From the IMG/VR virus record IMGVR_UViG_2711768006_000013: a DNA stretch of 4,055 nucleotides; one strand, written 5' to 3'. The notes under the pieces were generated by a model. The model made no database searches. It had not been told where the DNA came from and saw only the letters and a list, made by a program, of their open reading frames with translations. Shown in pieces: positions 1 through 3,798 of this stretch. This DNA is from a virus. Its lineage: Duplodnaviria; Heunggongvirae; Uroviricota; Caudoviricetes. Position 1 is the stretch's first letter, and each line of letters opens with the position of its first letter. The position numbers and the translations under genes are program-made.

Positions 1-2162
<2,162 letters not shown>

Positions 2163-2188
<26 letters not shown>

Positions 2189-2708
2189 TCAGCAACCCCG
2201 GTATCAGTTCATCCAGCGCGGCTGCTTTGTTCATGGCTTTGATGATATCCCGTTTCAGGAAATCAACATGTCGGTTTTCCAGTTCCGGAAAACGCCGCTG
2301 CACCGACAGGGGGATCCCGTCGAGAATACTGGCAATTTCACCTGCGATCCGCGACAGCACGAAAGTACAGAATGCGGTTTCCACCACTTCAGCGGAGTCT
2401 CTGGCATTTTTCAGCTCCTGTGCGTCGGCCTGCGCACGCGTAAGTCGATGGCGTTCGTACTCAATAGTCCCTGGCTGGAGATCTGTCTCGCTGGCCTGCC
2501 GCAGTTCTTCAACTTCCCGGCGCAGCTTTTCGTTCTCAATTTCAGCATCCCTTTCGGCATACCATCTTATAACGGCGGCAGAGTCATAAAGCACCTCATT
2601 ACCCTTGCCACCGCCTCGCAGAACGGGCATTCCCTGTTCCTGCCAGTTCTGAATGGTACGGATACTCGCACCGAAAATGTCAGCCAGCTGCTTTTTGTTG
2701 ACTTCCAT
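2163..2708 (-). CDS. Nu1: Terminase small subunit Nu1 (cosB-binding, winged helix-turn-helix N-terminus)
   Basis: The 181-aa ORF MEVNKKQLADIFGASIRTIQNWQEQGMPVLRGGGKGNEVLYDSAAVIRWYAERDAEIENEKLRREVEELRQ... matches lambda Nu1 (181 aa) as I recall it. It sits immediately downstream of the cosB repeats and overlaps the start of A. Confidence 0.95.
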
Positions 2709-2729: not shown

Positions 2730-2845
2730 CAGAGAAAGGAAACGACAGAGGCCAAAAAGCCCGTTTTCAGCACCTGTCGTTTCCTTTCTTTTCAGGGGGT
2801 GTTTTAAATAAAAACATTAGGTTACGGCGAAGAAGAACGGAAACG
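2730..2845. promoter_or_regulatory. cosB: terminase (Nu1) binding elements R1 (about 2730..2750), R2 (about 2768..2788) and R3 (about 2828..2845), with the presumed IHF site I1 in the R2-R3 interval
   Basis: Three copies of the CGTTTCC-containing R element are visible: CAGAGAAAGGAAACGACAGAG at 2730..2750, CAGCACCTGTCGTTTCCTTTC at 2768..2788 in the opposite orientation, and CGAAGAAGAACGGAAACG at 2828..2845. The arrangement, and the roughly 180-bp distance between the Nu1 start and cosN, match lambda cosB as I recall it. Confidence 0.8.
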
Positions 2846-2885
2846 CCTTAAACCGGAAAATTGTCATAAATAGCGAAAACCCGCG

Positions 2886-2897
2886 CGCCTTCCGCCC
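2886..2897. other. cosN: the 12-nt cohesive-end core of cos, internal and uncut as expected in a prophage; the sequence is a variant of the lambda core
   Basis: The flanks match the lambda left end (GCGAAAACCCGCG at 2873..2885) and right end (CGTAACCTGTCGG at 2898..2910) in reverse complement. The 12 nt between them read CGCCTTCCGCCC, where lambda has AGGTCGCCGCCC in the same orientation. Confidence 0.7.
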
Positions 2898-2945
2898 CGT
2901 AACCTGTCGGATCGCCGGAAAGGACCCGCAAAATGATAATAATTA
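2898..2945. other. Right-end cos flank, the expected location of cosQ (the element that terminates packaging)
   Basis: Sequence CGTAACCTGTCGGATCGCCGGAAAGGACCCGCAAAATGATAATAATTATCATC closely resembles the lambda right terminus as I recall it. The exact cosQ boundaries cannot be set without an alignment. Confidence 0.4.
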
Positions 2946-3096: not shown

Positions 3097-3330
3097 ATGT
3101 CAACGAAGAACAGAACCCGCAGAACAACAACCCGCAACATCCGCTTTCCTAACCAAATGATTGAACAAATTAACATCGCTCTTGTTCAAAAAGGGTCCGG
3201 GAATTTCTCAGCCTGGGTCATTGAAGCCTGCCGCCGGAGACTGTGCTCAGAAAAAAGAGTTTCGCCTGAAGCAAACAAAGAAAAGAGTGACATTACTGAA
3301 TTGCTCAGAAAACAGGTTAGACCAGATTGA
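3097..3330 (+). CDS. ylcI: YlcI-like (DUF3950) small basic protein of 77 aa, predicted ribbon-helix-helix DNA-binding fold; prophage moron
   Basis: The ORF MSTKNRTRRTTTRNIRFPNQMIEQINIALVQKGSGNFSAWVIEACRRRL... has a basic N-terminal tail, then a short strand (RNIRFP), a helix (NQMIEQINIALVQKG), a G/S/N turn (SGNFS) and a second helix (AWVIEACRRRL), which is the ribbon-helix-helix pattern. The N-terminal 50 or so residues match my recollection of E. coli DLP12 YlcI; the C-terminus differs. It is transcribed away from cos and opposite to the terminase genes. A weak Shine-Dalgarno (AGGG) sits about 8 nt upstream of the ATG. Confidence 0.7.
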   Translation: MSTKNRTRRTTTRNIRFPNQMIEQINIALVQKGSGNFSAWVIEACRRRLCSEKRVSPEANKEKSDITELLRKQVRPD

Positions 3331-3387
3331 AGCAATTTAGATAATCGTGCAGACTACGCCCCCTCATATCACATGGAAGGTACTACA

Positions 3388-3798
3388 ATGGCTCAGGTTG
3401 CCATTTTTAAACAAATATTCGATAAAGTGCGAAATAATTTAAACTATCACTGGTTTTATTCTGAACTAAAACGTCACAATGTCTCACATTACATTTACTA
3501 TTTAGCCACAGAGAATATTCATCTTGTTCTTGAAAACGATAATACGGTTTTAATAAAAGGACAGGGTAAGGTTGTAAATGTAAGATTTTCAAAAAATAAA
3601 TGCCTTATAGAAGCCACCTTAAAAGGATTCAAATCAGGAGAGTTATCATTTTACGAATACAGGAAAAATCTTGCTACAGCAGGGGTTTTCAGATGGATTA
3701 CAAATATCCACGAAAACAAAAGGTATTACTATACCTTTGATAATTCATTACTCTTTACTGAGAACATACAGAACACTACACAAATATTTCCGCACTAA
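3388..3798 (+). CDS. ybcV: YbcV-like (DUF1398 family) protein of 136 aa, function unknown; AT-rich prophage moron
   Basis: Intact ORF with a strong Shine-Dalgarno (GGAAGG at 3375..3380) 7 nt upstream of the ATG at 3388. The ORF track starts at 3373 (MEGTTMAQ...), but that ATG has no ribosome-binding site, so 3388 is the likelier start. The size (136 aa) and the position next to a ylcI-like gene fit DLP12 YbcV as I recall it. GC content is about one third, against roughly 55% in the terminase genes. No hydrophobic signal peptide or transmembrane segment is apparent. Confidence 0.6.

Follow-up and report, generated by a model that had tools for sequence, protein, structure and literature searches.

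The window, by which we mean the whole stretch of 4,055 nucleotides analyzed here, reads on its minus strand as the left end of a lambda-type virion chromosome joined to the right end, as in the prophage or circular form. Past Nu1 on this strand lie cosB, cosN (2886-2897) and the cosQ side. In window coordinates the features are as follows.

102-308: gpW
305..2188, minus strand: gpA (TerL) with ATPase and endonuclease domains (Pfam PF05876 and PF20454); the frame is open, with the N-run at 1224-1444 as its sole interruption
2163..2708, minus strand: Nu1 (TerS), 181 aa, full length (Pfam PF07471, E = 2.4e-101)
2733..2748, minus strand: cosB R1, 16-bp repeat CTGTCGTTTCCTTTCT, lambda bp 151-166, identical to lambda
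2774..2789, plus strand: cosB R2, 16-bp repeat CTGTCGTTTCCTTTCT, lambda bp 109-124, identical to lambda and inverted relative to R1 and R3
2833..2848, minus strand: cosB R3, AGGCGTTTCCGTTCTT, lambda bp 50-65 (R3 coordinates from PMC9026076), identical to lambda
2884..2885, minus strand: CG dinucleotide at phage bp 13-14, next to the bottom-strand nick site and the same as in lambda
2886..2897, minus strand: cosN cohesive-end core, GGGCGGAAGGCG in phage orientation and CGCCTTCCGCCC on the plus strand
2898..2899, minus strand: CG dinucleotide at phage bp -2 and -1, flanking the top-strand nick site, unchanged from lambda
2921..2927, minus strand: cosQ heptamer GGGTCCT at -30..-24; same sequence and spacing as in lambda and DE3
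3097-3330, plus strand: DUF3950/YlcI-like gene
3373-3798, plus strand: DUF1398 gene

A YlcI-like/DUF1398 right end is typical of integrated lambdoid prophages, and the two genes found here resemble genes annotated beside nohA/nohD in other E. coli genomes. Four IMG/VR contigs (L200, L189, L151 and L184) are 100% identical to the window. The length of its 221-base N-run (1224-1444) is not true, as window 1224-1445 corresponds to 264 nt in L200 (1230-1493). Because the N-run does not preserve length, the gpA ORF of the window looks 627 aa long, while the real gpA is intact and has 641 aa.

The lambda genome (NC_001416) begins with GGGCGGCGACCT, so the lambda cos sequence that the first-pass annotation of this DNA had quoted was correct. 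An ungapped alignment with DE3/lambda likewise bears out its count of 5 differences in the 12 positions of the core. They fall at bp 7, 8, 9, 10 and 12, all in the right half, which reads AAGGCG in the window versus CGACCT in lambda. Five of the six right-half positions are thus changed and only the C at bp 11 is retained, whereas the left half (bp 1-6, GGGCGG) is identical to lambda. Over 401 nt the cos region is 94.3% identical to lambda/DE3 with 23 mismatches, of which 18 lie in the 389 positions outside the core, in accordance with the roughly 95% identity of the flanks noted before. The clustering of differences in the core is real and above chance. The probability that at least 5 of 23 mismatches fall in a given 6-nt block is 2e-5, or about 0.008 when corrected for 396 blocks, and comparison with the nearest canonical-core relative in the sample (L116) gave 5/12 differences in the core against 3/380 in the flanks (Fisher p = 5.6e-7).

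The changes at bp 7 and 10 remove two of the symmetric pairs of lambda (6/7 and 3/10). The GC content of GGGCGGAAGGCG equals that of the lambda end (10/12), and its predicted Tm is 46.3 degrees C versus 47.8 degrees C for lambda at the same settings. The right half is not an inversion, as the reverse complement of CGACCT is AGGTCG and not AAGGCG. The hexamer AAGGCG at window 2886-2891 (bp 7-12) recurs at 2844-2849 (bp 49-54), at the start of the R3 region TTTAAGGCGTTTCC. A templated copy of this start was considered but is not favored: AAGGCG does equal lambda bp 49-54, yet the match stops at 6 nt. With a chance expectation of about 0.1 for a 6-mer within a few hundred bases, the likeness is probably a coincidence, a templated origin or a weak contact with TerS being less likely.

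The spacing between cosN and R3 is that of lambda, with no indel in the ungapped alignment, and the stretch of IHF site I1, between R3 and R2, has three substitutions relative to lambda (bp 71, 73 and 78). Those defining features of a lambda-type cos that can be tested on the sequence are all present. The sole mismatch is the identity of the right half, which by the account of Feiss and colleagues (PMC4669245) does not define such a site. Neither truncated or frameshifted terminase genes nor lost cos subsites, the marks of a cryptic prophage, were found in the window; for gpA this was judged from the open frame of the window together with the intact gpA of an identical contig.

Two small differences lie in the spacers. 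The spacer between R2 and R1 (window ~2759-2762, lambda bp ~137-140) has one G fewer than NC_001416 and is therefore 1 nt shorter, a state common to the window, DE3, PhiR63_1 and E. coli 582 (GCGAGGCTTTTT versus GCGAGCTTTTT or GCGGGCTTTTT). Between cosN and R3, an A-to-C change at window 2863 (phage bp 35; ATGACAATTTT) occurs in the lineage of the window and in the contig L094 but not in E. coli 582, lambda or PhiR46_1; it is a useful lineage marker.

Divergence in one half of the nicking site had been called unexpected for a lambda-like terminase. This premise fails because natural variation of bp 7-12 and its tolerance by lambda terminase are documented: differences at these positions are common among lambda-like phages and many mutations there have a minimal phenotype (PMC4669245). 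Relative to lambda, N15 and phiD326 are changed at two positions (bp 9 and 12) and Gifsy-1 at three (bp 8, 9 and 11), and lambda terminase gives equal yield on cosN-lambda and cosN-N15 (PMC4669245). The symmetric changes have severe effects when made in the left half, where G2C lowers the yield ~10-fold, whereas C11G is silent (PMC4669245). This asymmetry is explained by TerS at R3, which anchors TerL and renders the bottom-strand nick insensitive to sequence (PMC4669245; PMC9026076), and the spacing between cosN and R3 is important (PMC9026076). Described as conserved are cosQ and the left half, and as highly conserved the CG pairs at the two nicks (PMC4669245); the pattern of conservation in the window matches this set exactly. 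Heterologous termination yields chromosomes with mismatched ends that segregate both cosN types, and such ends cost ~4-fold in yield with only 2 mismatches (PMC4669245).

The variant core recurs, together with its immediate flanks, in many independent assemblies. A 44-nt probe in which every 28-mer seed spans the variable block matched 169 places in 158 of 5,426 complete E. coli genomes, and the probe for the canonical core 8,392 places in 4,473 genomes. The variant thus makes up ~2% of lambda-type cos places in these genomes. The complete chromosome of E. coli 582 is among its carriers. It is further present in 78 IMG/VR contigs, in two deposited phage genomes, PhiR46_1 (PV340565) and YDC107_1 (CP025712), and in 23 plasmid records, none of them mobilizable and most with a length of ~46 kb, whose hosts are E. 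coli, E. fergusonii, E. albertii and Shigella sonnei. A scan of genome contigs for the variant 21-mer gave 9 hits, of which Escherichia sp. E1V33 is the sole real match; the other 8 fall in GC-rich genomes (Sorangium, Actinomycetota, Chloroflexi and others) and are due to chance. A full-text search for GGGCGGAAGGCG retrieved no phage paper. The allele may still be listed in Vahanian et al. 2017, reportedly a survey of the natural history of cosN variation.

The identical core in hundreds of independent assemblies refutes a local assembly or sequencing error over 2886-2897, as the first-pass annotation had considered. The window does contain an N-run and comes from a short contig, but the same 12-mer was read in independently sequenced complete chromosomes, plasmids and phages from several countries and hosts, so that we regard the chance of such an error as negligible.

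Nu1 of the window type differs from lambda at 3 of 181 aa (measured on the DNA-identical contigs L200, L189 and L151), and gpA of these contigs, which are 100% identical to the window, differs at 3-4 of 641 residues; the gpA of L200 is intact with 641 aa, 4 of them different from lambda. At the variant-core loci from IMG/VR Nu1 is full length in 50 of 50 cases and gpA has 641 aa in 35 of 36, a count that leaves out the window with its N-run. At canonical-core loci the corresponding numbers are 67 of 77 for full-length Nu1 and 37 of 47 for intact gpA. Truncated genes are thus significantly more common beside the canonical core (Nu1 10/77, gpA 10/47) than beside the variant (0/50 and 1/36). This difference suggests a lower average age, or more frequent activity, of the elements with the variant core.

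Four Nu1 and three gpA proteins are identical in every residue at variant- and canonical-core loci, and one complete identical pair of Nu1 and gpA occurs in both classes (L172 with the variant, L007 with the canonical core). Across all extracted loci we searched for Nu1 or gpA residues co-varying with the core and found none, no position being fixed between the classes. Since identical Nu1 and gpA flank both cores, there is no sign of an altered terminase specificity, and judged from these proteins the terminase is not co-evolved with the variant core. The altered cohesive-end specificity that had been proposed is consequently to be divided: it holds, in a trivial sense, for the sticky ends, which differ from those of lambda and would not pair with them, but not for the terminase.

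The temperate phage PhiR46.1 (PhiR46_1, PV340565) has been isolated and employed in plaquing assays, and it has exactly the 12-bp core of the window. Its gpA differs from that of lambda by 3 aa and it has a complete lambda head/tail module, together with telL/telR, ParAB and a primase. YDC107_1 is classified as Ravinvirus. As an isolated phage that combines the variant core with a near-lambda terminase, PhiR46.1 demonstrates that a phage with such a cosN is viable. Since the PhiR46_1 record runs from telL to telR and does not start at cos, the GGGCGGAAGGCG overhang of this phage is a prediction from its core.

Plasmid replicons are strongly enriched among carriers of the variant. In the complete E. 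coli genomes they hold 16 of the 169 variant places compared with 20 of the 8,392 canonical places (odds ratio 44, p = 1e-18). The loci L124, L126, L127 and L218 are also cited for this enrichment. Two of the 23 variant plasmids were inspected, and both have the methylase-lysis-Nu1-A-W-portal layout found in PhiR46_1, an N15-type linear phage-plasmid. The variant is especially typical of such phage-plasmids with lambda heads. It may therefore be native to them, and integrated lambdoids such as that of the window may have acquired it from there. Canonical lambda cos was also found in PLSDB 'plasmids' assigned to Rahnella, Bacillus thuringiensis, Alicyclobacillus and Paenibacillus (H166, H167, H174 and H177). 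One of these records is 48,499 bp long. 'Plasmids' of 4.9 Mb also occur among the hits, and the hits of both kinds look like lambda control-DNA contamination or mis-binned chromosomes, not like genuine plasmids.

When all 12 bases of the core were left free, a scan of 120 IMG/VR loci returned 115 canonical cores, 1 window allele, 2 of GGGCGTCAGGCG and 2 with single changes. No true allele with a pyrimidine at bp 9 on lambda-type flanks was found in this IMG/VR scan; the single such hit (L217) is a chance match in an unrelated GC-rich sequence. Polymorphism per site is equally low at bp 7-12 and in the remainder of the conserved -30..+45 region, and at bp 7-12 it is composed of block alleles. 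In this unbiased sample the variation of bp 7-12 is thus near bi-allelic, unlike free drift, which sits a little awkwardly with the published view that there is no selection on these positions.

The two loci with GGGCGTCAGGCG are L093 (at 5457-5468) and L118, both from IMG/VR. From bp 8 to 12 they read AGGCG like the window allele, and their cosQ and CG flanks are likewise those of the window. They differ from it in a T at bp 6, a position of the left half that is normally conserved, in a C at bp 7, in a divergent 180-aa Nu1-like TerS and in another cosB. Because of the divergent TerS and the different cosB, they probably represent another packaging-specificity group.

The variant core occurs on 46 left and 33 right flank haplotypes of 190 nt, some of them unrelated, and both cores are found on three of the left and two of the right haplotypes. 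L176 and L075 differ by an island of the five changes, embedded in 78 and 97 nt of perfect identity. From these haplotypes the core is seen to move like a cassette relative to its flanks, as a discrete block rather than a product of drift in situ. Ordinary crossovers in the invariant flanks or heterologous cos termination would explain this pattern equally well, and boundaries of exchange at the nick sites are not resolvable because -30..+45 is almost invariant in all lineages.

Taken together, we consider it very likely that the window carries a recurrent and apparently working natural allele of cosN, confined to the half of the site in which lambda terminase tolerates changes. The contrary proposal, that mutation of the right half blocks DNA maturation and that the element is a decaying, packaging-defective cryptic prophage, could draw on the five changes inside the nicking site, on the many defective lambda-type cos loci of E. 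coli (truncated Nu1 at 10 of 77 canonical loci) and on right-end genes like those by nohA/nohD. It fits poorly with terminase genes that are more often intact at variant than at canonical loci, with an allele spread over dozens of flank haplotypes and autonomous phage-plasmids, with the same core in the isolated temperate phage PhiR46.1 and with the published mutagenesis showing bp 7-12 to be tolerant. This suggestion of the first-pass annotation is hence not supported by a window in which terminase and the other cos subsites are intact, and we judge it improbable. Mutations in gpA that extend endonuclease specificity have been described for cosN mutants, and gpA positions 9, 21, 185 and 466 differ in frequency between the two core classes, as would be expected if gpA had changed to recognize the new right half. 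Nevertheless, no residue is fixed, three gpA, four Nu1 and one full pair are identical across the classes, and gpA of the window type is only 3-4 of 641 residues away from that of lambda, which together make a co-evolved terminase very improbable.

A more far-reaching reading is that the variant represents a second type of sticky end, functional and selectively maintained and native to N15-type linear phage-plasmids with lambda heads. It would spread as a cassette of 12 bp when terminase starts at one cos and stops at a different one and the mismatch then segregates. The near bi-allelic distribution with very few single-step variants and no pyrimidine-at-9 allele on lambda-type flanks in IMG/VR, the 44-fold enrichment on plasmid replicons (p = 1e-18), the shuffling of the core against both flanks and the mismatched-end chromosomes that Feiss and colleagues obtained by heterologous termination, with their ~4-fold loss in yield (PMC4669245), all point in this direction. 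If it were true, the variant would be maintained because it renders hybrid-ended chromosomes formed with co-resident canonical-cos prophages non-cyclizable and so creates an end-compatibility barrier in polylysogens. On the other hand, with so little variation in -30..+45, ordinary crossovers in the flanks would give the same pattern, and the bi-allelism could simply mean that the prophage modules of E. coli descend from a recent common ancestor. We hold this reading to be rather unlikely.

For the tolerated natural allele, which we prefer, the published work on lambda suggests how the site would be processed. TerS bound at R3 would anchor TerL, and the bottom-strand nick between bp 12 and 13 would be insensitive to bp 7-12 because it is placed by its distance from R3. 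The top-strand nick would depend on bp 1-6 and the flanking CG, both of which are unchanged in the window. Terminase would then cut at the usual positions and leave 12-nt 5' overhangs with the predicted sequence GGGCGGAAGGCG, with a predicted stability about that of lambda. Both ends come from the same cos and are complementary to each other; therefore cyclization should be unaffected and only pairing with canonical ends should be lost. The allele probably reached integrated lambdoid prophages by recombination at or next to cos. There may be a quantitative, modest cost in packaging, as the five changes exceed those of the tested N15 allele (bp 9 and 12).

The variant provides natural support, more extreme than that from N15 or Gifsy-1, for the model of Feiss and colleagues that position relative to R3, and not sequence, determines how the right half of cosN is read. 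In practical terms, cos finders that search for GGGCGGCGACCT miss ~2% of the lambda-type cos sites of E. coli and close to half of those borne on plasmids, and the ends of variant phages will not anneal with lambda ends. The near bi-allelic pattern and the enrichment on phage-plasmids, small population-genetic curiosities in themselves, could serve to trace how integrated lambdoids and N15-type phage-plasmids exchange head modules. For basic biology the allele carries little weight, the modest new points being the bi-allelism, the cassette behavior and the ~40-fold enrichment on phage-plasmids.

Among known systems, lambda and the window share cosQ, the CG flanks of the nicks, bp 1-6, bp 11, R1-R3 and the cosN-R3 spacing, have flanks that are ~95% identical and differ at cohesive-end bp 7, 8, 9, 10 and 12. 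The N15 and phiD326 ends (GGGCGGCGTCCG, checked against the annotated end of N15) are right-half variants too that keep the left half and the CG flanks, and N15 has a G at position 12 as in the window. N15 nevertheless has its own TerS and TerL (TerL ~65% identical) and a simple cosB, whereas the window combines five changes with an essentially lambda terminase. Gifsy-1 and LLS/mEp213 (GGGCGGCGCGCT; PMC12315714) are likewise right-half variants but with other substitutions, neither having AAGGCG. The same core, right flank and lambda-type Nu1/gpA/W/B module are found in PhiR46_1, YDC107_1 and E. coli phage-plasmids of ~46 kb such as pEC21Z151-46K. All of these are N15-type linear plasmid prophages (telL/telR, ParAB, primase) with another flank on the cosQ side, in contrast to the window with its YlcI-like/DUF1398 right end.
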